A DNA stretch of 44,037 nucleotides from a virus (IMGVR_UViG_3300046837_000072:1-44037); one strand, 5' to 3'; shown: positions 719-44,037, counted from the first letter of the stretch. A program made the numbers and translations. The notes: generated from the sequence alone by a model not told the origin.

Positions 719-750
719 AGCTTGCACTCATGAAAATGGGTGTGTTTGAC

Positions 751-1446
751 TCACCCAGCGTTGCCAATTACCCATTCATTCGGTATGCCGGAACGACCAC
801 CGGAGCCGAACGTAATCTCGAACGACGACAGTTGCTGTTGAATGTCCTTGTACCGCATCTCCATCATATTCTTCGTCATATCGGCAGCCGCAGCATTCAG
901 ATCGTCTGTAGCTAGCGTAGCCCAAGCCGTACCATAGACCAACATGTCACGATCCAGATACATTGTGTCCTGCCAGTCCCAAGCATCACGAAGAATTGGG
1001 TAGAACTTGGCGAACACATTGATCTTGCCAGTAGAAGTCCTTGGCAGTATGTAGATACGCTTCAGGGCATAGTCTGGGTCAAGCACATTGAGACTGTTCC
1101 AATACACCGGACCTGATCCTGACAGCATGTCCCCCTGAAACGGGCTTATAGACCGCGGCGCAATGCTCAGATTCGCGTGGGCACCATCCCGACGTACCGC
1201 AATGATGTCCTCGAAGTCTAGTACAGACTCTAGCTCGTTGGTCGTAGGTATGCCCTTCACACCGTCGAGCGTCAACTGGACCCAATTACAGTAGTGACGC
1301 CAGTTGTATTTCTTGTAGAGCATATTGAACGCCCGGATGGCATCCGCGAACATGCGATCATCCGAGTACATCTGCACGCCAGGACCGGAAACCTCACCGA
1401 CGAGTTCCTGAGCGTCGTCAACGATATTTCGAATCGTCGCAGGCAT
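751..1446 (-). CDS. Head-tail adaptor / tail tubular protein A-like
   Basis: 231 aa with a helical N-terminus (TIRNIVDDAQELVGE...DAIRAFNML). It lies between the head genes and the nozzle. Confidence 0.6.
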   Translation of the reverse strand: MPATIRNIVDDAQELVGEVSGPGVQMYSDDRMFADAIRAFNMLYKKYNWRHYCNWVQLTLDGVKGIPTTNELESVLDFEDIIAVRRDGAHANLSIAPRSISPFQGDMLSGSGPVYWNSLNVLDPDYALKRIYILPRTSTGKINVFAKFYPILRDAWDWQDTMYLDRDMLVYGTAWATLATDDLNAAAADMTKNMMEMRYKDIQQQLSSFEITFGSGGRSGIPNEWVIGNAG

Positions 1447-1460
1447 TGCTCATCTCCGAG

Positions 1461-1485
1461 GGGGTGGATCGCGATGACCCACCCC
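1461..1485 (-). terminator. Intergenic GC-rich hairpin next to a motif A copy
   Basis: GGGGTGGATC-GCGAT-GACCCACCCC inverted repeat after the 235-aa gene; no clear U-tract. Confidence 0.4.
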
Positions 1486-1500
1486 TGTTTGAGTCACACA

Positions 1501-3641: not shown

Positions 3642-3662
3642 TATACTGCTCCTGTGTTTGAC

Positions 3663-4775
3663 TCAAACACCCAAAGCGTCGAGTGTCTCCCGAAGGATCG
3701 AGTCGTACGATTGGTTTACTGGTGCCATGTCGCCTTGCCCAGCGAACGAGGGTGCTCCGCGTCCGGTCGGCATTACTCGTCTTGCCTGCCTCACCTGCCG
3801 GTTGCCGTTCTGAGATGTCAACCGCATGTGGTTCAACTGTATTCTGGCCCATACTTCACTCATCGACATATGCTGGAACTGAGGCTGGCTCAGAACAGCA
3901 TGGAAGATGGGTATGTACTCCCTCGCTGAGGGGTTCTGAATGAAGAAACCTTGAACTTCACGCTCCGTCTCCTGATAGACACGTTGCGCCGTTTCCTGCT
4001 GCTGCTGAGTTTGCTGCTCAGCTTGCATACGTTGCTGTAATGGCGTCAACGCACCCCTAATCTCGTTCTGCACCATGCCCATGAGAGCATGAGTGTCCAC
4101 ACCGCCGGGCGCAATGCCGATCTTTGTCACATCGACGCCAGCAGCCGCAGCCATCGTCAGAATGCGTTTGAGCGCACTCACAGGGTCGCGTTTCGCCTCA
4201 GACGCAATCTGCATCGCCGTGATGGACTCAGAATCGTCCAGCCCAAGACGTGCCGCAGCCGTATTCCGGTCGTTCAACTGAGCCGTTAACTGCTCCACAC
4301 GTCCATGGAACTGCTGTCCCAACTCGATAGCACGATTCAGACGCCCAGACAAGTCCTGGGACCGAATCTGCTCCGTGGCAAGCTCGCGCCTCGAACGCTG
4401 CGCCTCCTGATACATGCGGGCTTCAAATCCCGCCTTGGCGACGACTTTGCCATCAGGTCCAATGAGGTTCCCACGCTGGTCCGCCTGTACTTCCGCACCA
4501 CGCGGCAACTGTCCAGGCTGTTGCTGTCGTGGCTCTTGCTGTCCAGGCTGTTGACGTTGCGGCTGTTGCTGCTGTCGAGCCTGCCTGCGATCCTCGTTTG
4601 ACTCAAACGCTTCACCGCGTGATCGCGGCTCTTCTATCTCACCGTACTCTTCGCCGCCTCCTAACTCTTCTCCACCTTCATCGCCGCCAAGATCAGCCTC
4701 GTCCATTCCTAGGTTATCCAGCACCATATCCATGGCGCTCTCTGAACCACCGTCCAGGTTCCGTTCCGTCATCAC
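3663..4775 (-). CDS. Capsid scaffolding protein
   Basis: Acidic, Gln-rich, coiled-coil-like 370 aa between portal and capsid, with a short C-terminal helix. Confidence 0.7.
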   Translation of the reverse strand: MMTERNLDGGSESAMDMVLDNLGMDEADLGGDEGGEELGGGEEYGEIEEPRSRGEAFESNEDRRQARQQQQPQRQQPGQQEPRQQQPGQLPRGAEVQADQRGNLIGPDGKVVAKAGFEARMYQEAQRSRRELATEQIRSQDLSGRLNRAIELGQQFHGRVEQLTAQLNDRNTAAARLGLDDSESITAMQIASEAKRDPVSALKRILTMAAAAGVDVTKIGIAPGGVDTHALMGMVQNEIRGALTPLQQRMQAEQQTQQQQETAQRVYQETEREVQGFFIQNPSAREYIPIFHAVLSQPQFQHMSMSEVWARIQLNHMRLTSQNGNRQVRQARRVMPTGRGAPSFAGQGDMAPVNQSYDSILRETLDALGV

Positions 4776-4782: not shown

Positions 4783-7152
4783 CTACTGCATTGGGTTCAA
4801 TTTGGCTAGTGGGGACTTCTTGGGTAGTATCGGTGGCGACGCCTTTGGTGGACCTCCCGGTAGCGGCGGTGCTGGCCCAGCCGGGGGCGTGCCTTGTTGG
4901 GCATTCTGCGCATGCAACTGTGCCACATGCTGTAGCAAGTAGCTCATAATCATGTGTGGATCGGCACCCGAGTTCTTCATCTGCACGACTTGTGCCTTGA
5001 CATCTGGCGGAATACTGGCAAGCAACTGCTCAATATTCTGTCCAGGCATCGTACCAGGCCCCTGTGTTGGGGATGGCGTAGGCGCCCCTGGCGTTCCAGC
5101 ATCCGCACCACCTGGAGGCTGGTCCGCAGGCTGATTCCCACCTGGCTGCGTGCCAGCAGCCGAACCAGCACCCTGGCCAGTCTTCGCTGTGATCTCCGCA
5201 TCGATTGCCGCCCAATCCTCTGGCTGGATCACAACCTCTGTGAACGCCTGTTGCAGCACCTTCAGCATCACTTTTAACGTCGCACCTGGCGCTGCCTGCG
5301 CAAATTGCCCAACGGCCTGCGCAATCTGGATCGCCTCCTTCTTCTTGAATATGCTATTCGGCTTCTCCATGCTGCCAGCAACGATTTCCATACTGAACGT
5401 ACTGTTCAGCATCGCAACGCTCATTTGTTTGTAATTCTGACCCAACGCAGGCCCAATGAGCCCAATCACATCCTCCACGCTCATGTACTGCACACACATC
5501 TCGGCAAGTGAAATCGCTATGTCAGCAACCACGTCTTCCACAACGTCAACCTTCGCCCCAACCGACAGCTTCATCGACTCCTGATACGTGTTGACGGCAT
5601 CCTCGTTTGTGTTCGTCTTGAACTGAACACCGCGCAACGCATCGCTCGTATTCGTGATACGGTTGATTGAGTCAAACAGGTCTTCTTTGTTGAACAGTTC
5701 TTTGTACGCATCCATTCGAGGATACAACGACTCGAAAATGTCCGAAATCTTGCCCTCACCAGCCTTGATGCCGCAGATGTGTTTCAAGTCACTTCCGATG
5801 CTTTCCCCACGAATGCCGTTCAGCATCTTCTCGACCTGATCGCCATCCACCTTATCCGAATTGTAGAAAAAGAAATCAAACACCGACGTTCGCATGCGTC
5901 GCAGCTTGCGATTGATTGTGTTGATTTCGTCTTGCTGATCCAAATAGTACGCAGTTTCGCCCACACCGACTGTTCCGCCGGTGCTCATAGTGTAGCCAAT
6001 GATGAAATACGGAAAAAAGCGTGTGATGTGCAATGGATCATCCCACACCCACAAAGGCCATTTCCAATCGTCACGATGGAACAGCATAACGCGATGCGTC
6101 AGCTTGTCCCAAACCAAATAGCACTCTGTCGTATACATTCGCAAATACGCAGTGCGCTCGTCATCCGTATGATGTGCGCTATCCACAGCGTCTTCCATAG
6201 CTTGCTGCACAAACCCCAACCCGTCATCACGCTTGCCGTCAGACGTGTCGAATGAAGCCTTGTGCGTAGGCTTGTAAATAAGAACACGCGCGCCACAGTC
6301 GTAATTGCTCGATCCTGGATCGTTTGACTCAGACGCAGACTCTGGATCAGGCTTCGTGAATCGCTGCGTGAGCATCGCAGTTGGCAAAAAGACACGCTCC
6401 GCCATCCACTCAGCATCCGTACCGTCCTGTAACTCTGAGTACGGATCGATGATCAGATTATGCGGCAGGATATTGCCAAGGCTTGGACCGCTTGGCTTCA
6501 TCACTTCCATATTCATCTCTAGGGCTTCCATCTGCCCGTAGAGCATAGAAACCGCCTCTTGCGTCTTCGCAGTGGCTAGTTCTTGTGTAATCTGACTCAT
6601 CTGCTGAATGGCGATTTCCCTCGAATCGTCTTTTCGAGTATAGTCCAGCTTCATGACACCGAAATTCGTTAGCAGCCCAATGCCGACGCACTTCTTGATC
6701 TTCTGCTTCGCATGCAACGATGTTCTGAATAGTGTATTTATCAGCTTCTCCATCGCTCGACAGAACTCTTGATCCGAGTCGTCGGACGTGCTGACAGTAA
6801 TGTCTGGGTTTTTGCTATAGACCGCAGGTAGCATGATGTTCAGGTTCGAGAACACCACGTTTTCAGTCACATCGCCACGCTTGAAGACACCACGCGACGA
6901 CTCAATCGCACGACCTTGGCTGTTGTTGTAGTATCGGAAAATCTCGTCCCACATCAACGTGATTTGTTCGTAGGCTTTCGTAGCCGCATTGATCCTGCGC
7001 TGCCACAACTTGCCTACGGACGAACTAATCGCTATGCGACTGCCTTCGTAAATCTGATATACTGGCGCAGGCTCCTTGCCAGGCTTCGAAGGCGCACTAG
7101 CATCGTCGCCCACATCGGTCGGATCGCTATCATTGATGTCAGCAAAGGTCAT
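4783..7152 (-). CDS. Portal protein
   Basis: 789 aa downstream of TerL. It has podovirus portal-like segments (NVVFSNLNIMLPAVYSKNPDI; YLDQQDEINTIN; RITNTSDALRG) and a Pro/Gln-rich tail. Confidence 0.8.
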   Translation of the reverse strand: MTFADINDSDPTDVGDDASAPSKPGKEPAPVYQIYEGSRIAISSSVGKLWQRRINAATKAYEQITLMWDEIFRYYNNSQGRAIESSRGVFKRGDVTENVVFSNLNIMLPAVYSKNPDITVSTSDDSDQEFCRAMEKLINTLFRTSLHAKQKIKKCVGIGLLTNFGVMKLDYTRKDDSREIAIQQMSQITQELATAKTQEAVSMLYGQMEALEMNMEVMKPSGPSLGNILPHNLIIDPYSELQDGTDAEWMAERVFLPTAMLTQRFTKPDPESASESNDPGSSNYDCGARVLIYKPTHKASFDTSDGKRDDGLGFVQQAMEDAVDSAHHTDDERTAYLRMYTTECYLVWDKLTHRVMLFHRDDWKWPLWVWDDPLHITRFFPYFIIGYTMSTGGTVGVGETAYYLDQQDEINTINRKLRRMRTSVFDFFFYNSDKVDGDQVEKMLNGIRGESIGSDLKHICGIKAGEGKISDIFESLYPRMDAYKELFNKEDLFDSINRITNTSDALRGVQFKTNTNEDAVNTYQESMKLSVGAKVDVVEDVVADIAISLAEMCVQYMSVEDVIGLIGPALGQNYKQMSVAMLNSTFSMEIVAGSMEKPNSIFKKKEAIQIAQAVGQFAQAAPGATLKVMLKVLQQAFTEVVIQPEDWAAIDAEITAKTGQGAGSAAGTQPGGNQPADQPPGGADAGTPGAPTPSPTQGPGTMPGQNIEQLLASIPPDVKAQVVQMKNSGADPHMIMSYLLQHVAQLHAQNAQQGTPPAGPAPPLPGGPPKASPPILPKKSPLAKLNPMQ

Positions 7153-7178
7153 TTGTCAGCCCCGTTTGACTCACACAG

Positions 7179-7358: not shown

Positions 7359-7409
7359 CGCTCCCTCCTTATTCCCCGCCTTCGCGAGGACATGGTTTGA
7401 CTCACACAG

Positions 7410-8927
7410 TCAGTGATTACCTCTGTATCCAAGCTCTGTCTCATGCCAATACTGCCACTTCGGCGGCAGCGCCGACTCTGGCACTATGATCTTGCTTACC
7501 TCTGGCAGATAGCTTAGCATGTACTTCAGCGCATTCATCGCATGATCATGCGCATCCATCGGCTCGTCAATCCGCTGGCCAGCAGTGTTCTGCTTCCAGT
7601 AGTACGACGACATCTCGTCACCAATGAACGCCAAGTCATCGACGAAGTAAATCATTGGCCCAGGGTCTTCCCTCGTAATAATGTGTGGCACACCCTTCTT
7701 GCCTGCCAAATACGAATTGACCTTCGCAATACCTGTGACGATATTGTTGCTCGAAGGTCGCATGTAAATCTTGTCATCCTGATACAGCTTCGCAATTGTC
7801 GAGCCGGTTTCCTTCATCCCAGCAACGACCGTCTTCTTGAATATGGAAGGATCAGCATGGATACGATTATTGAACATCAGCAATCCGGCATACCTTGCCC
7901 TGATGTCCCTAATCGCCTGCGGCTGCATGTTGTATGGAAAGTCGCTCTGGTAGAACCCATCAAGAACGATCACACGCCCACGGTCGTCCACAAATCCCAG
8001 CAAATAACAGCTTGGCGAGACTATACCAAAATCGTAAGCCTCCACTGCTTGAATTTGTACGTGTCGCAATAGACACTCTGCAAGGTAATTTTCGGCCTCC
8101 GCACGCGATAGGGTATGTACCGCCGGATCGTAATCTGGATGGACCAGCCCCTCGAATGCAACCCACTTTCCGAGCAAGAAACGGTCACGCATCTGGCCCT
8201 TGTAAGTGGCTTCGAGTCCGACAATATAGTCATGGGACAAATTCGCCTTGTTCGCATACGTGTCTGACTCAAACAGTTCCATGAGAGGCAGCCCCGTGTC
8301 GGAATCGATGAGCAGCTTCTCGACCTTCTGACCAGTCTTCAGCCACAACAGGTACGGCTGGATCAATTCCTTGTAGAACCAGTTGTGCGATGGGTTCGCC
8401 GTCAGCATCAACCACCGTGGACCACTCGCTGGCATCGTCAAGTCTTCGTCGTCCGCTAGATACGATGCATCGCCACGGAGACGGCCAAGCAAATCCAGGA
8501 AGTCCTTGTGTATGATGCCAGGGTCTTCGACCTGATCGACCCCTACCCAATCGTACGTCGCAGACAACAAATTGCTCGTCGCGCTGCCATCGCTACGACC
8601 CCTGCCACGCTGCGATATGTATCGGAAATTGACAATCGAGCCATTCTTCATATAGCACGTATTGTCGTCGATAGTCGGCTTCTTCAAAATCCAATCAGGC
8701 GGGCACCACTTAAAGAACACGCGCCTGAGCGTATCATTCAGCTTCGGATATGTCTCGCGGGCAAGGAGTCCATTGCAACCTGGATAGTCCTTGACCAGCT
8801 TCAGCGCCTTGACCGCGAGTGCAGTCGTCTTTCCATTAGCAAACGCTCCGCCGAATACTTGTATCTTTGCCCGGCTATGATAAAAGCCAGACTGCACAGA
8901 CCCTTCGATGAGTTTGTAATTCGGCAT
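7410..8927 (-). CDS. terL: Terminase large subunit
   Basis: Walker A-like VFGGAFANGKTT, LLARETYPKL, Walker B-like WVGVDQVED and LTANP coupling motif. The nuclease half has AYDFG, ADPS and DHAMNALKY. Confidence 0.9.
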   Translation of the reverse strand: MPNYKLIEGSVQSGFYHSRAKIQVFGGAFANGKTTALAVKALKLVKDYPGCNGLLARETYPKLNDTLRRVFFKWCPPDWILKKPTIDDNTCYMKNGSIVNFRYISQRGRGRSDGSATSNLLSATYDWVGVDQVEDPGIIHKDFLDLLGRLRGDASYLADDEDLTMPASGPRWLMLTANPSHNWFYKELIQPYLLWLKTGQKVEKLLIDSDTGLPLMELFESDTYANKANLSHDYIVGLEATYKGQMRDRFLLGKWVAFEGLVHPDYDPAVHTLSRAEAENYLAECLLRHVQIQAVEAYDFGIVSPSCYLLGFVDDRGRVIVLDGFYQSDFPYNMQPQAIRDIRARYAGLLMFNNRIHADPSIFKKTVVAGMKETGSTIAKLYQDDKIYMRPSSNNIVTGIAKVNSYLAGKKGVPHIITREDPGPMIYFVDDLAFIGDEMSSYYWKQNTAGQRIDEPMDAHDHAMNALKYMLSYLPEVSKIIVPESALPPKWQYWHETELGYRGNH

Positions 8928-8948
8928 TTGAGTCAAACACCTTGAGGG

Positions 8949-9491: not shown

Positions 9492-10145
9492 TCAACCTCC
9501 TACGTTGTCGATGGTCATACCGTTGACAGCAACCTCAGCATCACTGTCACCCTTGACAATCGTAATGCGGAGTTCACTATGCGCACCCTTGTTCTCAGCC
9601 ATATCCTTTGGCCGAACGCCTGCACGATCAAGGATGTCAATGTTGGCACGCAGAACATTGCTCTCCTTTTCCCCGTACATAGCAATACGATGCACACTAT
9701 CCAATGCATCGTCTGCATATGCCGCAATCTTCGAAACGAGACGCTTCGACTTCGCGCTGACGAATTCGCTCGCAACGATTTCGAATGTCTCGCTGTACCC
9801 TGGATGCTGCCGCACCTGCCGCACTTCGGCTGGCGTCATCTGCAACATCTCAGCAATGTCGCGATCTGTAATCCCCATAATCGTCAGGGTGAATACGATC
9901 GCGATACCCTTCATGGCTTTCGGTGAGGCTGGCAACTCAGGGACGGCCCGCTTACGTGCCGGTTTGTACTCACTACTCGACTTCACGTGACTCTTCGCTA
10001 CATCATCAAACAAGACCTCAGGAGGAATCGTCTTGCCGTCCGCCGTCACGTAAGGATCGCCCCAAGCTGCCAGCCTCGACTTCGTGGCAAGAGCCCGTCC
10101 AGAACTCTTGCCACGGTACTTCTTTCCGTTTGACTCAAACACCAT
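9492..10145 (-). CDS. Probable terminase small subunit (HTH)
   Basis: HTH-like GITDRDIAEMLQMTPAEVRQVR, a helical middle (ANIDILDRAG) and a C-terminal strand ELRITIV. It lies upstream of TerL. Confidence 0.6.
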   Translation of the reverse strand: MVFESNGKKYRGKSSGRALATKSRLAAWGDPYVTADGKTIPPEVLFDDVAKSHVKSSSEYKPARKRAVPELPASPKAMKGIAIVFTLTIMGITDRDIAEMLQMTPAEVRQVRQHPGYSETFEIVASEFVSAKSKRLVSKIAAYADDALDSVHRIAMYGEKESNVLRANIDILDRAGVRPKDMAENKGAHSELRITIVKGDSDAEVAVNGMTIDNVGG

Positions 10146-11029: not shown

Positions 11030-11092
11030 TTCAAGTCTCCTGTTTGAGTCAAACACTTGTCCTCGACTACGATCGGGGACCGGCTGGGAACC

Positions 11093-11320: not shown

Positions 11321-11350
11321 AATATAGCACATATTCGCGTGCGTGTCAAG
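11321..11350 (-). promoter_or_regulatory. Sigma70-type promoter toward the virion arm
   Basis: CTTGACA-N17-TATATT with TGn extension; fits the rhizobial-type CTTGAC-N17-CTATAT shape. Confidence 0.8.
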
Positions 11351-11366: not shown

Positions 11367-11381
11367 CTATCAATTTGATAG
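11367..11381. promoter_or_regulatory. Palindrome CTATCAA-T-TTGATAG (operator candidate)
   Basis: Perfect inverted repeat upstream of the 11350 promoter. A related CTATCAAAGTGATAT at 15363-15377 overlaps another promoter. Confidence 0.45.
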
Positions 11382-11439
11382 CACTTTTTTTCAATAAACT
11401 ATCAAAATACACCACAAAATTCACTGTTTGACTCAAACA

Positions 11440-11494
11440 ATACACAAAATACAACCAAAATACAACCTGAATACAACCAAAATACAACCAAAAT
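11440..11494. repeat. 11-bp tandem repeats (AATACAACCAA, about 4 copies) between two motif A copies
   Basis: aatacaaccaa aatacaacctg aatacaaccaa aatacaaccaa, flanked by motif A at 11425 and 11501. Confidence 0.85.
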
Positions 11495-11508
11495 GGGTCG
11501 TGTTTGAC

Positions 11509-11760
11509 TCAAACAGCAGTCGATTTCGACCTTCCAACTATCATTTTGAACCTTTTAACTGCATTTCCGACCACCACACAGTCGTTACAACAGTAATGAT
11601 TCCACTTATCACCCTCTTTAAATGTCCTCCAATGCTCTCGATGCAATGTTTTCACAACATTATTCCAACCACGTGCAGTGCTTGCTGACAACATCTTGTC
11701 GCATCCATCGCATGTAAAAATAACACCACCCTTCCGAGTGCGTTGAGAGTCCAATGTCAT
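11509..11760 (-). CDS. Small Zn-finger-like protein; paralog of 18241..18420
   Basis: CDGC...LHREHWR...WNHYCCNDC with a GGAG RBS, downstream of the 11876 promoter. Confidence 0.75.
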   Translation of the reverse strand: MTLDSQRTRKGGVIFTCDGCDKMLSASTARGWNNVVKTLHREHWRTFKEGDKWNHYCCNDCVVVGNAVKRFKMIVGRSKSTAV

Positions 11761-11845
11761 GATCAACTCCTATTGTGTGAGTCAAACAGCGAATGTGCAT
11801 CACTTGATCTGGCTTCGCTACCCCCGGTGTGCTTTGGACTTACAG

Positions 11846-11876
11846 AGTATAGCAACATTCGAGCGGACCTGTCAAG
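11846..11876 (-). promoter_or_regulatory. Sigma70-type promoter
   Basis: CTTGACA-N18-TATACT. It shares TGAAAATAATGCTTGACA with the 11350 promoter. Confidence 0.75.
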
Positions 11877-12069: not shown

Positions 12070-12182
12070 ATATAATCCCCCATCAGATATACCCTCCGTA
12101 CCCGGTCTGTTTGACTCACACACCGCATCGTACCGTGCATTCTGCCATTATTCATCGTATTGAGGTTTCGCCGGTGCCGCAT

Positions 12183-12297: not shown

Positions 12298-12324
12298 CAA
12301 CACGGTTGCATAGGAGCGGAACAG

Positions 12325-12525
12325 GTTGTGTTGTTTGGTTGTTGTTTGATTGTTGTTTGATAATTGCGATTTGGAGCCTCCCTTTGCACGGTGGAGTGTG
12401 CGGTATTTGAGTCAAACAGATAAGGTTTTGGGGATCAGTGCCGACGGCGCGGATCGGCACGGCAAATCATGCACGGCAATGTTTGTTTGATGTTTGATTG
12501 GTGTTTGTTTGGTTGTTGATTGATC
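12325..12525. repeat. TG-rich short repeats (TTGTTTGRTTG-like)
   Basis: ttgtttggttg ttgtttgattg ttgtttgataa at about 12331-12363, with a similar tract at 12480-12525. Confidence 0.7.
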
Positions 12526-12661
12526 ATTGGACGCGTGGGAATGGTTGTTAGGACATTCCGTGCCTTGCGGCGAGGGAAGTCCTATCCCGGAAAAAGGATG
12601 GGCTTTGCGCGAAATGGCTTAGGGTGCGACAATTTGCCACATGTGACAGCTATCATTTCCG

Positions 12662-12690
12662 TTGACTGTGTGTGTCAAACATGCAAAAAT
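12662..12690 (+). promoter_or_regulatory. Possible early promoter with a degenerate motif A in the spacer
   Basis: TTGACT-N17-AAAAAT; the -10 element is weak. Confidence 0.35.
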
Positions 12691-13418: not shown

Positions 13419-14486
13419 ATGGTTAAGATAGTGTCGAATAAGGTGGTCGCCGGTAAGGTGGTCACTAAGACGGTCGCGGCAAAAGTCGCGACTAGGGCCG
13501 TTAAGTCTCCGCCGCAAGGCAGGGCCGAAACGGCTGCGGAACGCGCGGCTAACGAAACGACCGGAGGGATTGTGCCACTTAAGAAATCGGCATTGTCGCT
13601 GGACGTTGGGCCGCGCGTTATTCACGCCATGTTCTCGGCTGAAGCGCGCGTCGGACAACTGGTCGAGGAATTGCACACGCTTCGCGGCGTGAAGCGATAC
13701 GAACAATTGTCGGAATTGACGCTGGCGGTTGCCAAAGCCGCTCGCGCCGACGCGTCCATTGATCTTGCCGCAACCTACAGCGGCGATAAGAAGGCAATGG
13801 AGCGCCTGAACGATCAACTCGGCATTGCCCTTGGTTTTCGTGAAATCAAAGGTACTGTTGACCGTAATGGGTTGACTTATGAGGCGGTTGTCACGGCTAA
13901 GGCCGTTGGCGATTGCTTCCCATTGCCGGGAGAAACACGCGATACCGTCAAAAACTTCGACCAGAAAAATACCTTCCGGTCTAATTTTATGACGCAACTC
14001 AAGAAATGCGCACAAGCTGCACATGGTCTGATCGAGCAAAAGATCGAAGCGAAGCTTGATAGCAAGTCAGGTACGCTTTTGATCAGCGGACCGGCCGTCA
14101 AAAAGCATTTCGGACAAGATCGAGTGCTTCTAGACGAACGGCAGACCATCGGAACTGGTGACGCTGCGGTCAAATTGAGCGAAAAGCCTTCGTTTCAGGC
14201 TCTCGCGAACATTGGCGCAGCGACACAAGGTGTCCAGCCTGCGGCGGCAGGTGCGGGAGGTGCGCAGCACAGAGGCAAACAAAGTGGTACTGTTGGCGGA
14301 ACGCTCGCGCAACAGGCCGTTAAGGTCGCAGAAGTGACAGGCAAGGAAAGCCTTGACGCGGCTATCGTGACTATCTGCAAGGCGCTTCGTACTGCGTTGG
14401 AAAAGACGCAGGGTGCTTTGTCAAAGGGTGCCAGTGCTGCACTCGAAGAAACGAAGAACGCAATCGAGGTTAAACTCGCGTCCTAA
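13419..14486 (+). CDS. Hypothetical early protein (355 aa, basic N-terminus)
   Basis: Long Ala/Lys-rich ORF starting MVKIVSNKVVAGKVVTK, bounded by hairpins. Confidence 0.8.
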   Translation: MVKIVSNKVVAGKVVTKTVAAKVATRAVKSPPQGRAETAAERAANETTGGIVPLKKSALSLDVGPRVIHAMFSAEARVGQLVEELHTLRGVKRYEQLSELTLAVAKAARADASIDLAATYSGDKKAMERLNDQLGIALGFREIKGTVDRNGLTYEAVVTAKAVGDCFPLPGETRDTVKNFDQKNTFRSNFMTQLKKCAQAAHGLIEQKIEAKLDSKSGTLLISGPAVKKHFGQDRVLLDERQTIGTGDAAVKLSEKPSFQALANIGAATQGVQPAAAGAGGAQHRGKQSGTVGGTLAQQAVKVAEVTGKESLDAAIVTICKALRTALEKTQGALSKGASAALEETKNAIEVKLAS

Positions 14487-14492: not shown

Positions 14493-14532
14493 CGGCCCGG
14501 CATTCGAAAGGATGCCGGGCCGATCCTTGTTT
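14493..14532 (+). terminator. Hairpin/terminator
   Basis: CGGCCCGGCATTC-GAAA-GGATGCCGGGCCG followed by ATCCTTGTTT. Confidence 0.6.
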
Positions 14533-14559
14533 GACTCACACAGAAAATGGAGTGCGACT

Positions 14560-14787: not shown

Positions 14788-15043
14788 CCGCATGCAACGC
14801 AACGCCAGGAATAGGGCCGATCCGGTCCTATTCCTGGAGCGGTCTTGTTTGACTCACACAGCGTTCACGGCCTGTTCCGCGCCCAGCCGCTGCCACAATC
14901 TTGCCACATTTCGGCCGTCCCCCCCCCTCTGGGACAGGCGCACCAGATATGGCCGAGGCTTGCCTCTGGGACAGGCGGGGGTACAGGCGCACATGTTTGA
15001 CTCACACACATGTCCTCGCGAAGGCGGGGAAAGGAGCAGGCGC

Positions 15044-15350: not shown

Positions 15351-15380
15351 CTTGACAGATTGCTATCAAAGTGATATACT
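15351..15380 (+). promoter_or_regulatory. Sigma70-type promoter
   Basis: CTTGACA-N17-TATACT with TGn extension. Confidence 0.85.
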
Positions 15381-15590: not shown

Positions 15591-15647
15591 GAGTGTTTGA
15601 GTCAAACACCATGGCCTCACGGAGGTGGGGCACGATAGGAGTGCAAA

Positions 15648-29394: not shown

Positions 29395-29618
29395 TGCAGC
29401 TTCTCAATCTCGCGAGTAGCACGCCATTGAGCGATCTGGCCCGGAAGTATAAACTTCTGGGCCTTTTTGTCTGCGGCGAGTGTACGCAGGAAGGCTATCA
29501 CATCACCGTCGCGTATGTTGCCACCGGCTTTCTTGATGATGTCGGACTGCCTTCGTCCTTGCGTGCCGCCTTCGATCATGAAGCGTGTGATCTTGACTTG
29601 CCAGTCTTCATCCTTCAT
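29391..29618 (-). CDS. Small hypothetical protein, possibly winged-helix
   Basis: 75 aa, ATGA-coupled to the giant gene. It has a helix-helix-helix then hairpin pattern ending in QWRAT. Confidence 0.55.
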   Translation of the reverse strand: MKDEDWQVKITRFMIEGGTQGRRQSDIIKKAGGNIRDGDVIAFLRTLAADKKAQKFILPGQIAQWRATREIEKLH

Positions 29619-32600
29619 TGGCCTTGTCCTTGTTGGTATTGTTCAGCGGCAGTATTCGCCAGGTCTGTTTGAGTCGGTGCGCCATACGGATCAAGGTCTT
29701 CTATCTTGATTGGTCTTTGGTATATCCTGGACATGTCACGTTCTACTTCGCTGATGGCATCGTTTATCCCACGTGCAGCATGTTGTTGATTATATGCATA
29801 GAAGTTCCGCACTTCTATCGGGTTCTTCCAGTTCACGTTAGCGTTCTGTAGCTCTCGCATGACTGTGGGACGCGCTTGGATTTGCTTCTCCCAAGTGACT
29901 TGATTGCCTGGGTCGATGTTTATCATTGTGCGTAGAGCTTTACCGGCGTCACTGTACCGCCTCCATAGCGATTTGTAGCCCATGCCGCCCTTCTCAAGTG
30001 AGTCGCTCTCTACACGCGCATGCAGGAACTGAATGAACTTTAGGTACAGCGGATTGGTCGGCTCCTTCTGTTTAAGCCCTGGTATCTCAGGTGCTATAGG
30101 CTTGCCAAGACGTGCCGTTGCCATCATTTCACCGCTTCTACTGAGCGGTCTGGCATGATCGATGTGAGCTACTCCGGTCGTACCGTAGGTATTGAAGTAG
30201 CCAACAATTCTGTCAGTAGCCTTTCGCCGATTCATCATCTCGGCTGTAACACGCGTGTTGCCAGATAGTGGCTTGCTCATACCCATAAGGTTTCCGACCA
30301 CAGGCGTACGCCTCAATGCCAGATTTCCGGTTGCCTTCATAGCATTCGTGAGCGCATCACCTAGGCCGCTTTCAGTATGTGCAGCAGCATTGTATCCTGC
30401 TAGAGTCATGTCAGCCATAGCTGGCCATATGGCTCTGAACACGCTCGACATTCTCTGCGACACTTCTTTGTTTGAGTCAATATATTTGTCGCCCCTACGC
30501 ATATACACATCGCCGCCAAGATCAACGTTTCCGGTGTTTTGCCCTAGCAGTCCACCAGTCATCCAGTCAGGCAGTAACGCTCCATAGTTTGCAGGTGGTG
30601 CAACACCAGTAGCTTCGAACAAGGCTTGTGCTATCGGATGCATGGGCGGCATCACTGCAAGGTCAAGGAATGCAGTCAGAGCAGCCTGTGCATCTTGCTT
30701 CATGGTCCATATGTTCTTTCCATACAGATGGTCCATTGCAGCTTCTGTCATCATTTTCAATGGCGAAAGTTCCTGGAACGGCGACCGGAACTCAATCCCC
30801 TGCGCCGCTGGAAGTCCTGGAACGGCTAGGTAATACGACATGGCTTTGTCATACTCGTTTCGACCATTCATCATATGGTCAACGTACGGAACGCCTTGTG
30901 GATCCTTTCCCTGGCTGACATTGTACCAGTAAGTAAGTGCCGATGGAAGCGAACCGTACATGAACGATCTAGCTAGGAACTCTGTTGGATTAGCACGAAG
31001 CGCAGCCGGGAATCGTTTAGCACCCTGAATGGCCATGTTGTGCCAAGGAGCAGCTACACGCAGAAACTCGTTCGGTGCTACCCATGCATATTGGGCAGCC
31101 TTTCCGGCCGTTAGTGCTGCGTATCTTTTGAGGCCAGTCACTTGATCCCCAGGATCATACGTGATCTTCTTGCCGCTAGGCGTGTAGTATCGGCCTGTGA
31201 TTAGTGGATCGCCTGCCATGTCATTAGCTTCCAAGTGCAGGCGATTGTACGTCTCCTCCATTATTTGTTCGTGCGTCGCACCCGGACCCATTTCCTTACC
31301 GACCTGACGTGCCACATGACGCAGGTTGCGCTGTATGTATGCAAACTGCGGCATGCTGTGCAGCGCATTGATTGTATGTTTCGCACCTTCGAGCGCCGTC
31401 ATCGTACCACGCGTCCCCGGAGTTTGCTTTAGGCGCTCTATCGCTTTGTCTATTGCGTTGTTCTGCAAGTGCCGGTTCTCACCTTGACGTAGGAAGCCAG
31501 CAGTATGCGTGCCCCTAGCTTCCATTTGAGCAAGTGTGCTGCGCAAGTATGCATTGCTGAGTACTGTAGATAGGTGATTTGCCGCTGTCTCACCAAAAGC
31601 CTTTCTTAGCCAGTTACCGCTTGTCGCATTGAGTGAATGTGCTGCATACTTTGCTAGCCTTGGGCCAAGCTGTGATACAAGCGCATAGGGCAGCGTGCCC
31701 GGTCCAAGCGGGACGCCTGTGAGCCCCACTGTTTGCCTTATTCCAAGAAGGCTGGGCGGTCTGCGAGGGAGTTGCGGGAATGGAATTACTCCAAGTTTCC
31801 TACCCATAACCATTCGCGGGATTATCCTTCCTGGCCCCATGCCTCCGCGTGCAGTTCCAGCAGTTATTTGACCTATATGCCAGTTACGGAGCGCATCCGT
31901 AAGAGCAAACCACGGAGCCATCAAGCCTGTAGTATTGGCCACGAATCCTCGCCTGGAGGCATCCAGTAGATGCGTGAGCGAGTTGGACGCGAAGTGATAT
32001 GGGTCCATCCTAAGTAGGTCAGCCATCGTTTGACTATTCGCTAACCAATGCTCACGCATGCCACGACGCCTAATCGTCACGGTACGATAGTGCAGCTTTG
32101 GTGATTGTCTTAGCTCCGCTGCTGTGATTGGCCTGAACATGCCACGACTACCAGGGTTGCGATGGAGGGCATCGAGCGTCTGACCAACTGCCTCATTAGT
32201 TAGGCGCTTACGCATGCCTCTACGAACAAAGTCAATTGCCGACCCAACAGGATCGGGTCGCTTGATAGGCTGACCATTGGCATCGTGCGGCCCAGGGCTT
32301 CTGTCACGACGCCCCTGTGGAACCTCATTAGGATTGTAGGCATTCGCTTCGGCATGTTGTTTGTTTGTGATGGTTCCGAACTCACCTTCCGCCATAGCAC
32401 GACGCATCTCTAGTATGTTCTCACGGTACAGGCCACGCACTCGTACGAAGTCAGGATTTTGCTGCTCTGCGTCTCGAATGTATTGCGCCACGTCAGCTTC
32501 GCTCATGCCATGTAGCGTAGGCACACCAGGCTGTGGGTTCTTTTTCTTGGCAAGAGAACGCTGCATTGCTTGTAGTTGGTCAAGCATATCGTTCGCATGT

Positions 32601-35600
32601 AGATAGTCATTGAAGCCATCATGGTTCTGTGCATACTTCTGAATCTCTGGCAATGCTGTGCTAGCTTCGTACCGAACAGCCGGAGTTATAGCACGTCCTT
32701 CCGCTGCCGCCGAGTTTGCGATAGAAGATGCCTGGCCTCCAGTAAAGACCCTAAGTGTCTCCTTGACTCGTCGAAGCTCCTCCGGGTCCATGCCTGCCCT
32801 TCTGGCATAGCGTGTGAGTGCGGCAGCTTGATCATCGCCTATGCGCGCGTAATCACCAGGGCCGAACGAAGTCTGCGGAACAGCAGGATATGTCGGCTGT
32901 GGAAACTGTGGCGCATTGGGATTAACTGGCGGTGCCGCAGGCGGTGTTTGACTCACACGGGGAGTTGTCGGTACGGACGTAGGTGCTGGCGCAGCAGGAG
33001 GCGTAGGTGCAGGGGGAGGCTGCAACTGCGACTGTCGTACCATTTCAGGGTCTACCTCGACATAGCCAGGAGGCGGCCATGCCGGTGCAGGAGGCGGTAC
33101 GATTTCTGCATTGATGGGCGCAGGTGCATGCGCAGCAGGACCAACAGTGCCCGGCTTCGCTACGATAGGAACTCGCGGTGCCTTCCTAGGCGCAGTTGCT
33201 GCCGCAGGCGGTAAAGGTGCTACAGACCCAGGAGCCCCAGGCTTTATGTCGCTCAGTTCCGGCAGCTTCTCCTTCAGTGCATTCAGTTCGTCGATGGGGC
33301 TCTTCGCAGCCGCAGCAGCTTCTTCAGCAGCCTTCCTAGCGGCTACTGCTCGCGGATTGAGTCCGAGCCCACGAAGGTTTGTGCCAGCCATCCTGCGGTT
33401 TTTGGGCGGCGCAAGTTGTGGCGCAGGCGGCAGTTTGGGCTCAGGGGCTACTGCTGCCTCCGGTGCAGGTGGCAGTTCGGGCTTTGCAGCTTCACGTTCA
33501 GCAAGTAGCTGACCTACGGGGCTCAGGCCGGTCTTGCCAGGTTCGACAGTCTGTGTAGGAGGTGCTTCGATAGCTTCGTCGGGAAGGAACTGTCCAGTTT
33601 CGGGGTCTCTTGGACGTACAGGCAGATCATGCGGGACAAATCGTCCAGTCTCAGGGTCTATCGGGTATCGGAATTTTCCACCACCACCCATACCGAGTGC
33701 ATGCGTTTCCATCGTAGCGGACGGGAATCTTGCACCTACGACATTCATAGCTGCTTCCGTCGCGGCTGCTGCGGCTCGATCCTCTGGCAAAGAAGAATAG
33801 CCCATCGGCCCGATGCCAAGCGCCTTGCCAAGCCATGTGCTATCCTGCGTCGGGACAGACGACCCTACAGTATCATTGAAGTCACCGACTGGCCCATGTG
33901 CGTACGGGTTGCCTCCAACGTCCATAGCAGTATTTTGAGCCTCTTCCGCTCCACGGTAAAAGCCCTGAGCCGCACGGATGGGTAGTCCCAAAGTGGCTAT
34001 TGCGGCCATCTCGCCTGTGGTCAGTGGTCGCCGCGTATATGGCATACCAGGCTTGTTGTACAGCTTCTGAGCCTCATGCGACATCGAGCGCAGCTCTTCG
34101 TCTGTGAAGTTCGGCGGTGTTGTCTCTTCATATGTTGGCGTCAAGCCTCGACGCATCCTATCCAATGCCTCCGGTGCCATGAAGGCGCCCTTGGACATGC
34201 CAATCGTAGGATCGACCATTGCGTCCATAACATTGATCGTCTGCGGATTGCCATCAGCACCAGTCACCGTGACTGAATGGAACGGAGGCGCCATGCCAGC
34301 AAAGTTAGGAACCTGAGCAGGAATCGAAGAAGGTTGCAAGTTCACCGGCGATGCAGGCAGGTTTAAGCTCTTCACATAGTCTTGCAGATTCTGTGTCTCG
34401 ATATTCGGCTGAGAGAGTGTTTGACTCAAACCAAATCCTCGCGAAGGCGGGGATAGTGCTTGTGCCATCTGGTACGGAGTCTGATCTTCTTCGCCAACGT
34501 CTGGGCTTGCGTCTGACATTTCGCTCGGGTTGATTTCAGCATACTGCGCACCTTCGTACGGCTCAGGGCTCGCATCCGACCTAATACCTGTGTCGAGCAT
34601 TGCATATTGACGACCGCGAGGCTGCGTAGTGCCTACATCGCGCATCTGCGGTGTGTAAGCGCCCAAGCTGTTGATCCACTTGAGGTCTTTGAGTTCATGC
34701 ACAAAACGTTCGCCAGTTCCCGGATTGAATGCAATATTCGCACCGTCGGAGCGATTACGACCACTCTCGTTTCCAGTAGCGAAGTTACTAACGTTTGATC
34801 CTTGTAGTGCGTTGGTGGCAAGGTTGTTGATACGGCCTTGAATGTCGGGTCCGTAGCCATGACCGAGTTGGCTCATAGTCGATTGAGGATAGTACCTAGA
34901 GTCTTGGATAGCCCTGGTCAGTGAGTAGCCTCGGGATAGCGCACGATTCATTACAGACTCGATATAAGCCTGCTCCGCCTGTGGTCCTTGTCCACCGACT
35001 TCGGCCTGCGTCGAAGCTGCAAGTAGCCTACGTACGTTCGGGTTTTGAAGTTCAGTACCGAACTTAGCCTGTCGCGCCTGCGCTAAGGTCTGGACAGGCA
35101 CGCCCTCGAAGGACGGTTGAGCAGATGACCGAATGGACGACGCAGGCGCACGATAGCCAGGACCGGCTACATTTGATGGTTCTGCAAAAGGCTGCTGATC
35201 GGAAGGCTGTCCCCTGCCGCCGCCACCTGCTAGTTGAACATGCACAGGGTCTCTAGCATACGCACTGCCCTTCAAGAACTCCAGGCCAAACTGACCAGCA
35301 TGCTGGTGCAGCCAGTCAAGCACCGGGCCGTGCGAGACATCCGCCGCAGTACCTCGCTCATGTCGGCTAGTACCAGGTGCTGCTGCTAGTCCACCTTGAC
35401 CCTGTGGTGAATAACGAACGCCACCGAAGGAGACAGAGCGACCTGTATAGTTTGCATAGTATTGCGCCTGAGTCTCTGGCGAACGATACAGATCAGTCAG
35501 AGTCGCTTTGGAACCTGTGGCAGCCTCCGCAGCCTGAATAGCCTGCGAAAGTCTGCTGGCAAATACAGGATTGAGATTGTGCGAACTGAGTCCTTGGCCT

Positions 35601-36037: not shown

Positions 36038-36089
36038 CGGAGTTGCCCCGTGTTTGAGTCAAACAGCCTGTCCTCACGAAGGTGCGGAA

Positions 36090-36784: not shown

Positions 36785-36819
36785 GGTCTATCTCCGTTTG
36801 AGTCAAACAGGGAATGGAG

Positions 36820-39172: not shown

Positions 39173-39212
39173 GGCATCCTCCTGTTTGAGTCAAACGCTC
39201 TCCTCACGGGTG

Positions 39213-40640: not shown

Positions 40641-40877
40641 TTACCTGTGTTTGGTCTGCTCAATAGCCCGGCGTATTTCGTCACAAGTCTCTGTTACCGT
40701 CACGTATTTGCCGTCTGAAGTGCTGACCATGCAACGAACCCCCTCGGTGAAATGTTTGTTGCTCTTGCTCGACGGCGCTGCACGCATGCTAGTGATCGAT
40801 GGTGCATTGATGTCAATCTCCTCTCCCGCCAAGCCATGCAGGACAATGATCACCGTTGAACCGGCGAGAATAGTCAT
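40641..40877 (-). CDS. FlbD-like small protein
   Basis: IVLHGLAGEEIDINAPSITSM...VSTSDGKYVTVTETCDEIRRAI resembles the FlbD family pattern. Confidence 0.5.
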   Translation of the reverse strand: MTILAGSTVIIVLHGLAGEEIDINAPSITSMRAAPSSKSNKHFTEGVRCMVSTSDGKYVTVTETCDEIRRAIEQTKHR

Positions 40878-40942
40878 GTCCGCAGCCCTGTTTCCCGCCC
40901 CCCACCTTCGTGAGGGCTTGCTTCGCGAGAATGAAGTTTGAC

Positions 40943-42751
40943 TCAAACAGATTCCAGCACTTCGATACGCGCCTTCAATTCCTTCACCGCATTCACCAGT
41001 GCGAAAATCAGCGGCGTAGTGTCTAGTACACGCATATCATCGACCGGCACACCGTCAATGTAGGCATTGGTCAGCGTGACCATCTCTGGGAGCACAGCCT
41101 CGACTTCTTGCGCGATCAAACCAGCAAATTTTCGTTCATCAGCCGCCGATTGAGCATGACTGCTGTTTGGATAAGGTGCCGTCTTCGTGGCATCCGGTGC
41201 GTCCTGTGTGTCATTGCCCTTGTATGTGTAGATAACAGGTTGCAATTTGGCAATATCGTCGAGGCCACGCTTGTACTCGCCTTGCACGTTTTTGATGCGA
41301 ATGTCGGAACTGTCAGCCCACGCACCACCACCAGGCTTGTAGCCATTGAAGTTCGCCGTGACGTTGCCGGTCGTGATGTTGGCGGCTGAGAGATTGTATG
41401 CGATTGTTACCAGCGCAGTTGCTCGATTGATGCTCAACGGCGAATCGATAAGTGTCCCGGCATCGCTGCCGCGATAAAGCACAAAGTTGCTGCCAGCATT
41501 AGCGCCGGTTTCGGCAGCGGCGTCGCCCAATCGCATAAGCCATCTCATGCTGGCGCCGGTTTGCCCGTACAGATCGGCACCGAACCCGGCCGCTCGTATC
41601 AATGCCAGCGAAGCGTTGCTGCCTGCGATGTTGATCGACAGCGCCCCGGTCATGGTATCGCCGGCCTTGCTGACCCGCGATGTGTCACTTGGATGAATAT
41701 GCGCTCCATCTGCCCATTTTCCACTCGCTCCAATCGCTGCAGCACCGTCCATTACTGGCGCAACAGTTGCAACCACAGGCATCGCCGCAGTTACTTGCGC
41801 CGCTGTCTGATAACCAAGTGGATTACTTGCAGCATACCTTGACGTATCGGTCGGATGGACATGATCCTCACGCGTATAGGATGGCGACACTCCTACAACG
41901 CCTGGCGTCGCATCCATCAACGGCATAGCGCCGCTAGGTGGAGGTATACTCCCGCCGCCGGTCACGTTTACTATAGCATTTTGCACAAATGCAGTCGTGG
42001 CTAGCTTTGTCGTAGCATCTATCATCGACGCTACTGTAGGTGCTGTCGGTACACCAGTAAACGCAGGACTATTCAGTGGCGCTCGCGATGTATCAGTTGG
42101 ATGTACATGGTCGCCACGCGAGAGCTTTTGCAACACGCCCGCCGTAGCAATACCGTCCATTGCAGGAGATGCATTAGAACCAACAACAACTTCGTCAATA
42201 GCAGTTTGCACATTGGTAGCCACCAGATGGCTTACTGCATTGCTGTAGCCAATGCCAGAGGCCGTCTGAGGCGATAAGCTGTTGTATGTGAATCCCCAAT
42301 AGGCAGCATCGTCATTGATCGTACCAGCAGCATTGCTGACATGCTTGGTCGCACATACTGCCTGAATGTTCCGACCTGCCGTTGTGTCGTACACCATATC
42401 ACCAGGGTTGTACGCAGTATTGTTCAGCCACTGCCCTCGCACTTTGAACGAGAGCATGATTGCATTCCAGTATGTCGGATGAGCCGCTCGATCCTGCGCA
42501 AACGTCGTCGGCGATGCAGCACTCGTATGCGAAGTTACGCACACCCATGTCGAGCTATCGACTGAATCAATTACCTGAAGGCCCAGATTGTACTGGTACG
42601 AGTTCTGCCATATCGACGTGCCATTGCTCGCCGCCTGACCATACATCAAGGAATCGATAGCATCGAACGAGTCCCAGATGCCCTGAATCCAAGGCTCAGA
42701 CATGAAGTCGGTCTTTGGGAACCGATAGTTCTTGGTGTATGTAAGTGTCAT
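40943..42751 (-). CDS. Tail fibre with C-terminal intramolecular chaperone (peptidase S74)
   Basis: SDIRIKN..LQPVIYTYK..GLIAQEVEAVLPEMV..LVNAVKELKARIEVLE. It has three H(V/I)HP(T/S)DTSR repeats and two CBM5/12-like N-terminal repeats. Confidence 0.88.
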   Translation of the reverse strand: MTLTYTKNYRFPKTDFMSEPWIQGIWDSFDAIDSLMYGQAASNGTSIWQNSYQYNLGLQVIDSVDSSTWVCVTSHTSAASPTTFAQDRAAHPTYWNAIMLSFKVRGQWLNNTAYNPGDMVYDTTAGRNIQAVCATKHVSNAAGTINDDAAYWGFTYNSLSPQTASGIGYSNAVSHLVATNVQTAIDEVVVGSNASPAMDGIATAGVLQKLSRGDHVHPTDTSRAPLNSPAFTGVPTAPTVASMIDATTKLATTAFVQNAIVNVTGGGSIPPPSGAMPLMDATPGVVGVSPSYTREDHVHPTDTSRYAASNPLGYQTAAQVTAAMPVVATVAPVMDGAAAIGASGKWADGAHIHPSDTSRVSKAGDTMTGALSINIAGSNASLALIRAAGFGADLYGQTGASMRWLMRLGDAAAETGANAGSNFVLYRGSDAGTLIDSPLSINRATALVTIAYNLSAANITTGNVTANFNGYKPGGGAWADSSDIRIKNVQGEYKRGLDDIAKLQPVIYTYKGNDTQDAPDATKTAPYPNSSHAQSAADERKFAGLIAQEVEAVLPEMVTLTNAYIDGVPVDDMRVLDTTPLIFALVNAVKELKARIEVLESV

Positions 42752-42810
42752 GGACCTACCTCACGAATGGCTGTTTGAGTCAAACGTTCTCCTCGACCAC
42801 GATCGGGGAG

Positions 42811-44037
42811 CTAACGTTTATACCTACCACGAGAGTACAGGAACGATGCGCTGAGGACTTGGAGAGGCTTCGTGGTTGTTCCGACGACTCTCAGTTTCAG
42901 CAACTTGAACTTGACTGGAGAGCCCCACAGTCTAGGATCATCTCCACGCCTGCCTCCGCCCATCGGCCCATCATTGTAACCTGCGCCAAGCGTTCCGCCT
43001 CCAATGAATTTCATCGACAGCGCAGGACCAAACCGCACAATGCCGGTATCGTCCTTATACAACCCATCCACATACGCCTCTACTGTGTACTCGGCCGAAC
43101 CCACTGTTCCGATACTAATGAACCGCAACTGTTTGGACTTCATCGGGTCTTTGCCCGAGAGCCACGGTAACTCCATTTCGAACTGGATCGGAATGCCATT
43201 GTATACCGTCCAATAAGCAGGGAATGCAGCAACGTCAGCCGCCATCGTAGTTGTGCCGCTTGTATGTGCCTGCATGCATGTGTACGAGATGTTATTGACA
43301 GTATCTCGAATGATCTTATTGACTGCATACGCTGTGCTGGGTGCCCAATTAGCATCTCTGTCATTCATGCGATCCGCGTTCCAGTTCTCTCCCAGGAACA
43401 CAGGATTGCCATGCTGGAATATTCGCATACCAGCACCGTAAAACACACGTCCAAGGAACGTAGTGCATGCACACGTCCACAGCGTCGGAAAGTCGTACTC
43501 GGACCACGAACTATAGTGTAGGTTCTCGCTCCCGGTATGCACAAAAGCACGTCCAGACGGATTGAACAAAATCGTATCATGCCACAGCGGATCATGGATC
43601 AGGAAGCAGTTGTTCTGCTGCTGCGCATCCGTCAGATTACCTGTTACGTTTCGGTAAAATGGCTCAATACGGTCACTGACATGATCGCTGGTAACGTTGC
43701 CACTGAACAGATTACGTTTCGCATCACTGAACCCATCGAGGCCAGTAAAGATCATGTCGTGTTCAACTTGAGTCACACAGCGATGACCCAAAAGACCGAA
43801 TTTCGGTAGCGTATCAGGAAACTGTGGCTTGTGAGTGCCTCCCGAATCGTAATTCCCAAGCAGAACAAGCAGCGTTTGACCCTGAAAGAATATGAGCAGA
43901 TAGCTACGAAAACCAGCAAGACCGCGAATGGCAGCGGCACCTTGCGGCGAGTACGCTCCCACGTCAATAGAAATCGAGTCGTTCGGCACCGGATCGCCAG
44001 GAAACACACCAGAAGTGCCCACTGCCGATATGTAGAT
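42811..44037 (-). CDS. 3' part of the tail nozzle-like gene (starts at 718 across the junction)
   Basis: Open frame through the window end. It includes a CBM5/12-like insert WAPSTAYAVN..YTCMQAHTS..YWT. Confidence 0.75.
   Translation of the reverse strand: MYISAVGTSGVFPGDPVPNDSISIDVGAYSPQGAAAIRGLAGFRSYLLIFFQGQTLLVLLGNYDSGGTHKPQFPDTLPKFGLLGHRCVTQVEHDMIFTGLDGFSDAKRNLFSGNVTSDHVSDRIEPFYRNVTGNLTDAQQQNNCFLIHDPLWHDTILFNPSGRAFVHTGSENLHYSSWSEYDFPTLWTCACTTFLGRVFYGAGMRIFQHGNPVFLGENWNADRMNDRDANWAPSTAYAVNKIIRDTVNNISYTCMQAHTSGTTTMAADVAAFPAYWTVYNGIPIQFEMELPWLSGKDPMKSKQLRFISIGTVGSAEYTVEAYVDGLYKDDTGIVRFGPALSMKFIGGGTLGAGYNDGPMGGGRRGDDPRLWGSPVKFKLLKLRVVGTTTKPLQVLSASFLYSRGRYKR

Follow-up and report, generated by a model that had tools for sequence, protein, structure and literature searches.

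A clade-wide, graded array of 15-bp palindromes in a phage genome and a candidate protein that may read it

The viral sequence IMGVR_UViG_3300046837_000072 (44,037 nucleotides; "the window" below means this whole stretch) is a complete 44-kb phage record with a 127-nt terminal repeat, and copies of a 15-bp palindrome, TGTTTGANTCAAACA, are spread along it. The window encodes capsid, portal, TerL, TerS, tail fibre and a 2140-aa virion protein, together with replication and recombination genes: an exonuclease, a Sak4-like protein, a RecD-like helicase and a family A polymerase with a UDG-like domain. A non-coding control region at about 11.1-12.9 kb, from which two gene arms run in opposite directions, contains two sigma-70-type promoter matches; a third match lies at 15352. 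The closest cultured relatives are distant, with best identities of 24.5% for the capsid and 26.6% for the polymerase. The phage has a podovirus-type genome and probably an alphaproteobacterial host, the latter suggested by depletion of GANTC outside the palindromes together with a sub-threshold VPLPA-CTERM match. Matches to the tail fibre gave nothing informative on the host, and alignment of the capsid against GTDB genomes returned no relative and hence no prophage or host lead. The promoter matches and the two genes discussed most below are as follows.

11321-11349, minus strand: sigma-70-type promoter match, 11 of 12
11846-11875, minus strand: sigma-70-type promoter match, 11 of 12
13419-14486, plus strand: basic protein of 355 aa from a closed family, for which Pfam and fold searches gave no match; leading candidate for binding the palindromes
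15352-15380, plus strand: sigma-70-type promoter match, 11 of 12, for the early/replication arm
24203-24409, plus strand: ribbon-helix-helix (RHH)-type protein, core gene; weaker candidate binder

In the window, the palindrome has 6, 28, 7, 3 and 7 matches at 0, 1, 2, 3 and 4 mismatches, respectively. The 41 matches with up to two mismatches compare with 2.1 in order-5 Markov controls, the four-mismatch class is at background level, and a reversed-pattern control gave 0 matches. A self-trained matrix finds 43 strong sites (at least 17.6 bits) and five weak copies, at 30469 (10.8 bits), 22795 (8.6), 23043 (8.3), 43765 (7.3) and 40176 (4.0). Within genes there are 11 sites, against 0.42 expected and a maximum of 2 in 100 rounds of synonymous codon resampling. 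The Markov, reversed-pattern and codon-resampling controls thus confirm the genome-wide array that an earlier note on this DNA had described, including the enrichment of its in-gene copies. The note's figure of about 48 copies is reached only when the five weak copies are counted with the 43 strong sites, and all seven stop codons that it had credited to sites match the ends of open reading frames (ORFs). Its spacing of about one site per kb is correct as an average but not as a uniform rule, since spacing is graded: sites stand 0.1-0.4 kb apart in the control region and 1.3-2.4 kb apart at a distance from it. Perfect palindromes are a minority, and most sites have mixed halves, TGTTTGA with TCACACA. 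The sites, 15 bp each, are listed without strand.

743-757: site; stop codon of 751-1446
1486-1500: gene-junction site
2658-2672: site just beyond the capsid gene
3655-3669: perfect site; stop codon of 3663-4775 (putative scaffold)
4595-4609: in-gene site, putative scaffold
5664-5678: in-gene site, portal
6321-6335: in-gene site, portal
7163-7177: site ahead of the portal start
7394-7408: site beyond the TerL end
8261-8275: in-gene site, TerL
8925-8939: site at the TerL start
10127-10141: site near the TerS start
11041-11055: perfect site ahead of the first leftward gene
11425-11439: perfect site upstream of leftward promoter 11349
11501-11515: perfect site; stop codon of 11509-11766
11774-11788: site downstream of leftward promoter 11875
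12108-12122: control-region site
12404-12418: control-region site
12667-12681: degenerate control-region site without GANTC
14528-14542: site behind the candidate binder gene and its terminator-like hairpin (14493-14542 including the site)
14846-14860: site
14994-15008: site
15425-15439: site, 80 bp downstream of the -35 start of promoter 15352
15594-15608: perfect site
16309-16323: site
17289-17303: gene-junction site
17898-17912: site
19340-19354: site; stop codon of 19179-19346
20145-20159: site
20746-20760: site, 3 mismatches
21471-21485: site in the exonuclease gene; stop codon of the overlapping ORF ending at 21477
22428-22442: site with A/T centre
22795-22809: weak site (8.6 bits)
23043-23057: weak site (8.3 bits)
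23970-23984: site behind terminator-like hairpin 23936-23965
25945-25959: site; stop codon of the helicase
27274-27288: in-gene site, DNA polymerase; kept in 36/37 genomes
29055-29069: site
30469-30483: weak site (10.8 bits) within the largest gap
32945-32959: in-gene site, 2140-aa virion protein
34418-34432: in-gene site, 2140-aa virion protein
36051-36065: perfect gene-junction site
36795-36809: gene-junction site
39183-39197: gene-junction site
40935-40949: site; stop codon of the tail fibre gene
42772-42786: gene-junction site
43765-43779: weak site (7.3 bits); end point of the array in the earlier note

At 14493-14542 and 23936-23984, the TGTTT of the site forms part of the T-rich tail of the terminator-like hairpin just before it.

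How widely is the array conserved? The clade comprises 1274 capsid clusters (E up to 1e-10). We profiled 40 related records that are whole or nearly whole and 19 loci; with the window, these make 60 records. Many of the 60 are redundant, and seven further entries, mostly picked up by a single pattern match, were left out. A variant of the motif is present in all 60 records at 0.53-1.62 sites per kb, and near-complete genomes carry 34-51 sites each; the very distant locus L462 (26% SSB identity) has no such array. Motif position 4 is T, G or A depending on the lineage, and T arose in two separate branches. The site in the polymerase gene is kept in 36 of 37 non-redundant genomes (16 near-duplicates were dropped beforehand) even though the encoded peptide varies at four positions, which supports selection on the in-gene copies in relatives. 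The sole genome that lacks this site also has other residues there. In the largest gene, the positions of in-gene sites shift between lineages and their number stays at 1-4. The array is real, clade-wide and under selection.

The two halves of a site agree less often than independence predicts at position 4 (247 versus 291 expected), at position 7 (46 versus 74) and also at position 1. Because the half-sites do not co-vary, the site appears to be read as duplex DNA, and arms that are concordant less than chance exclude hairpins and fit a dimer that tolerates one weak half. A single-strand hairpin signal, such as N4-type promoters or RNA hairpins, was rejected, as the arms show no compensatory change. 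The proposal that the palindrome is the site of a dimeric protein is therefore supported at the level of sequence, in the form of duplex binding by a two-fold symmetric protein, and it is very likely that a protein binds the sites. This protein is probably encoded by the phage, since the motif varies along the phage tree and bacterial genomes show only scattered perfect copies of the G variant; there, the perfect G variant stands singly in 118 of 120 loci, 40 of these loci having short flanks only.

Placement and spacing were analysed in sets of 15 genomes, whose members are related rather than independent and whose gene calls were made in this analysis. Among 594 sites, 394 are intergenic (47 expected), 50 lie at gene edges and 150 are internal. 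A TGA stop is supplied by 80 of the 594, always from the same motif position, and there is a modest orientation bias, the sense-strand centre being G in 336 sites and C in 238. Spacing is more even than under random junction choice combined with random in-gene positions (p ≤0.007), and more even than under random in-gene positions alone (p ≤0.024), in 15 of 15 genomes in both comparisons, which supports selection on spacing. The median gap is 380 bp at the control region and grows to 1.3-1.7 kb at a distance from it (pooled rho 0.58; 0.30-0.71 per genome, 15 genomes); in the late arm, 1.4 kb is the median gap and 633 bp the 5th percentile. Junctions flanked by longer genes are occupied more often, from 9/66 up to 57/85. 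In 77 of the 135 sigma-70-type promoter matches, the -35 start is followed by a site at a distance of 36-200 bp, most often at +69 to +110. The interval from 0 to +39 holds just six sites, and others lie immediately upstream of -35. The clustering at +69 to +110 and the scarcity at 0 to +39 indicate that the sites lie in the transcribed leader rather than on the promoter. Weak helical phasing of the sites upstream of promoters (R ~0.3, p ~0.01, from non-independent data) was not used as support.

Which protein might read these sites? Four candidate binders had been named earlier, and the 355-aa protein encoded at 13419-14486 fits best among them. Its family is closed and contains 191 clusters, and Pfam searches of 41 and 32 homologues found no shared family. 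The predicted structure is confident (pLDDT 82 for the whole, 92 for the core); fold searches gave no Foldseek match at E 0.001 and a best VIA Z of 4.3, an absence of match that does not show a new fold. The gene is the first large gene of the early arm and often has its own promoter match. It is present in every near-complete genome but two, in which the contig is cut or incomplete. Of 24 genomes compared, 18 place a site at the gene's 5' end and 20 place one no more than 100 bp from its 3' end. Helix 180-206 is basic and conserved across 131 homologues at K183 (82%), R187 (88%) and N189 (96%). Residue 192 is His or Arg in nine genomes, all with G at motif position 4 (one G/A), and Thr or Ala in 19 genomes, 14 of which have T or A at that position; it is the only column of 3528 that fits the repeated switches at position 4. 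The window's protein has Thr192, and its homologues in G015 and G036 have His192. The sole lineage with N189G, that of G018, is also the sole lineage that relaxes motif position 5. Another change, G232D, tracks loss of GANTC in three of three genomes, which represent few lineages, and was set aside. Extra scans for independent site-protein pairs returned almost solely close relatives. We tentatively name the 355-aa protein as the binder, at slightly less than even odds, on support that is circumstantial and partly post hoc.

We propose, with a probability of about 0.45, that the array acts as a stoperator-like set of roadblocks that silences the phage genome during dormancy or early in infection. 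The palindromes, as duplex DNA, would be bound by a phage dimer, which may be the 355-aa product. Bound behind each promoter and at regular intervals along both arms, the dimer would stall host RNA polymerase, and stalling would silence the entire non-integrating genome, whether for dormancy without integration or to slow an ongoing infection. The widening of gaps away from the control region is what one would expect of roadblocks whose effect is greatest close to promoters. A roadblock is also favoured because junction placement, 20-30 sites per genome and a phage-specific consensus make up the stoperator pattern (PMC6550527, in the part of the paper drawn on here).

Several observations weigh against this reading or against its candidate binder. 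Even spacing and the filling of gaps within long genes fit a structural role equally well, and staying clear of promoter cores may do no more than prevent interference. The palindromes here are symmetric, unlike stoperators, which lack symmetry and have an orientation, and the authors who described a symmetric array in Cluster O mycobacteriophages judged a transcriptional role unlikely for it (PMC4351075, in part). There is no sign of temperate life: ParB_N (PF02195) was found in 0 of 21 genomes, with a positive control found in 11 of 14; tyrosine integrase (PF00589) was found in 0 of 21, serine integrases not having been searched in the relatives; none of the 67 window ORFs is an integrase or belongs to parABS; and no capsid gene was found in GTDB genomes. 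Among soil RNA libraries, 11 hold 6-12% of the phage words, and contigs from four libraries are scattered over early and late genes rather than confined to the candidate gene; such contigs cannot rank genes and may include DNA. As for the 355-aa protein, the fold searches recognised no DNA-binding fold in it, and five of the 19 Thr/Ala-192 genomes have G at motif position 4. The residue-192 pattern was defined post hoc and ranks 70th by a plain Fisher test. By partial distance correlation with the motif, the protein (0.13) ranks behind TerS (0.25) and three accessory genes; distance-matrix covariation singled out no gene, and whole-protein covariation does not favour this one. Moreover, the window's own copy of the gene lacks the 5' site, and junctions beside genes of 0.6-1 kb carry sites about half the time anyway (31/67).

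The main rival is structural, in that the sites would dock a dimeric phage protein for genome compaction or organisation, for handover to the packaging motor or for ratcheted entry, leaving transcription largely untouched. It draws on the evenness of spacing beyond both null models in all 15 genomes, the regularity of late-arm gaps, the rise of junction occupancy with gene length, the relocation of sites within the largest gene at a constant number of 1-4, and a density near 0.8-1 per kb across the clade. The TerS correlation, which is the highest among families present in at least 26 genomes, points the same way, but the helix-turn-helix region of TerS varies among phages. The absence of ParB_N also counts against a structural lattice, as do the cluster of sites at +69 to +110 behind promoters and the density gradient, both of which favour a transcriptional role, with the caveat that the genome ends may lie in the control region as well. 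On balance we consider a purely structural role somewhat unlikely. The competing readings are not all mutually exclusive. A broader conjecture, which we regard as doubtful as a whole, is that the 355-aa protein is a sequence-specific DNA binder of new fold that coats the genome of a non-integrating soil podovirus along a graded series of sites. The phage would thereby reach dormancy or compaction with neither integrase nor ParB, and residues 189 and 192 would decide which site each lineage recognises and, through this, its immunity group.

Could the sites instead be read by something other than the 355-aa protein? GANTC, the CcrM methylation target, is kept in 42 of the 43 strong sites of the window and in nearly all sites of most relatives, and in all 60 records GANTC is scarcer in the background than expected (observed/expected 0.24-0.90), a sign that the host may methylate or cut this sequence. 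A binder that read this methylation would couple phage silencing to the host cell cycle. However, in five records, from two branches of a single subclade, position 7 is T or A and the array persists with GANTC in 7 of 131 sites (G019 1/40, G031 3/39, G040 1/16, G041 1/26, L332 1/10), and their background GANTC is as depleted as in the others. Therefore, CcrM methylation is not a general part of the system, and the switch by host methylation suggested in the earlier note is not borne out as a general requirement. Nor does GANTC explain the centre of the site, which is C or G and not any base. The subclade without GANTC does avoid symmetric centres, and methylation could matter there; overall, CcrM coupling is the least probable of the readings. 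Hardly more probable is that the RHH protein or the winged-helix-like protein at 29391-29618 reads the sites and shuts genes down mid-infection. Both are core genes, and the RHH type is indicated by Atlas matches of 0.93-0.94 and weak DUF1778 matches (E 0.08-0.25). Phages that share a motif nevertheless have very different beta-strands in their RHH proteins, which makes this protein a poor fit. The partial correlations of the two proteins with the motif are 0.06 and 0.08, no column of either fits the switch pattern, and an 8-bp palindrome in the early promoter spacer would suit the RHH protein better. A regulator or nucleoid protein of an alphaproteobacterial host, with site variants that track host lineages, is also improbable. 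In its favour, no phage protein shows both conserved contacts and a known fold for binding DNA, most phage proteins are less conserved than the motif, and the same 15-mer occurs at one homologous locus in 53 mostly actinobacterial records, so bacterial regulators can use the word. Against it, about 200 stretches in 596 billion bases carry the perfect G variant, nearly all of them singly, with no alphaproteobacterial cluster among the matches listed; one exact variant was scanned, and a degenerate host regulon could escape such a scan.

Dispersed sites of this kind have precedents. The conserved inverted repeats of Streptomyces phage phiC31, which integrates, are multiple palindromic sites for repressor c. 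The sites here are likewise multiple and palindromic, and the nearest named Atlas cluster to the 355-aa protein is the phiC31 repressor c family, PF25746, a weak lead at 0.78; the PF25746 profile, by contrast, matched 0 of 21 genomes at E up to 0.1, and repressor c was rejected as the reader. KorB is a ParB-family CTPase clamp. The KorB/OB operators of plasmid RK2 are likewise dispersed palindromes for long-range silencing (PMC11790492, in part, with details from general background), but the number of sites here is much higher and, with ParB_N not found in the 21 genomes, a ParB/KorB-type reader was rejected. Cluster A stoperators (L5, Bxb1) comprise 20-30 repressor sites, most of them off promoters, with a consensus that differs between related phages; they are asymmetric, 13 bp long, oriented with transcription and bound by a helix-turn-helix repressor in temperate phages with integrase or parABS (PMC6550527, in part). 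The array here resembles them in its many genome-wide sites, mostly off promoters, and in its varying consensus, and differs in that the sites are symmetric and no integrase, ParB or clear helix-turn-helix repressor was found. Cluster A stoperators supply our working model, although their asymmetry and lysogeny are not seen here.

The closest parallel lies in Cluster O mycobacteriophages (Corndog and relatives), which carry 34 symmetric 17-bp sites and no integrase or parAB; these repeats are intergenic and in-gene, mostly off promoters, and the part of the report drawn on here leaves their binder and function unexplained (PMC4351075). The two arrays share more than 30 dyads genome-wide (43 strong sites here, 34-51 in near-complete relatives), intergenic and internal placement, avoidance of promoter cores and the outer TGTT...AACA bases. 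They differ in architecture, 15 bp with a 1-bp centre and another core here as against 7+3+7 in Cluster O, and in the podovirus-type genome and probable alphaproteobacterial host of the present phage. Since Cluster O has the same kind of feature, the symmetry that had been taken to make the present array undescribed is not new. A literature search, mostly of the main texts of open-access papers, found no paper on this motif or clade. The array is thus of a kind already known and still unexplained. What we add, also relative to the Cluster O report, is the measurement of even and graded spacing, lineage variants of the site, the finding that CcrM is not required, and a candidate reader that can be tested and whose fold found no match.

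Why do these features matter? Symmetric genome-wide arrays in integrase-less phages, unexplained in the Cluster O paper (PMC4351075, in part), gain natural variants of both the site and the candidate protein. The predicted specificity switches make the question approachable by a few binding assays without a cultured phage. If the candidate binds, it would offer a DNA-binding fold unmatched in the searched libraries and might point to a way in which soil phages achieve dormancy or superinfection immunity.

Some further features accompany the array. The 8-bp palindrome, TG(A/C)TA(T/G)CA, lies at 15361-15380 (the main early promoter spacer) and 11376-11383 in the window and at the same place in G002, G003, G005, G037 and G042; in many relatives it sits in the main early promoter spacer and beside the leftward promoter. 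It could be the operator of the core RHH protein. At positions 2001-2015 of L509 and at 52 homologous loci, the actinobacterial 15-mer is the core of a longer single-copy palindrome, which a MarR-type gene follows in L509; this is probably an unrelated operator. In the control region, repeats with an 11-bp period face each other at 11437-11502, 12321-12370 and 12480-12533, A/C-rich on the left and with the G/T-rich complement on the right. Cumulative GC skew turns near them, and they are candidates for an origin or terminus and for packaging signals. A conserved ORF at 20905-21477, whose stop comes from the site at 21471, overlaps the start of the exonuclease gene (21113-22261) in another frame by about 360 bp in 14 of 15 genomes. 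At 20180-20407 lies a protein with an Acb2/Tad1 hairpin domain (Pfam E 9e-12), patchy in relatives and likely an anti-defence gene. Two genes are strain-specific: 19426-20064, for a PEP-CTERM/VPLPA-CTERM-like surface protein whose match is below cut-off, and 16358-16528, for a small RMF-like protein (E 1.5e-7). Finally, the small Cys-rich ORFs at 11509-11766 and 18241-18420 are similar to each other and lie on opposite arms.

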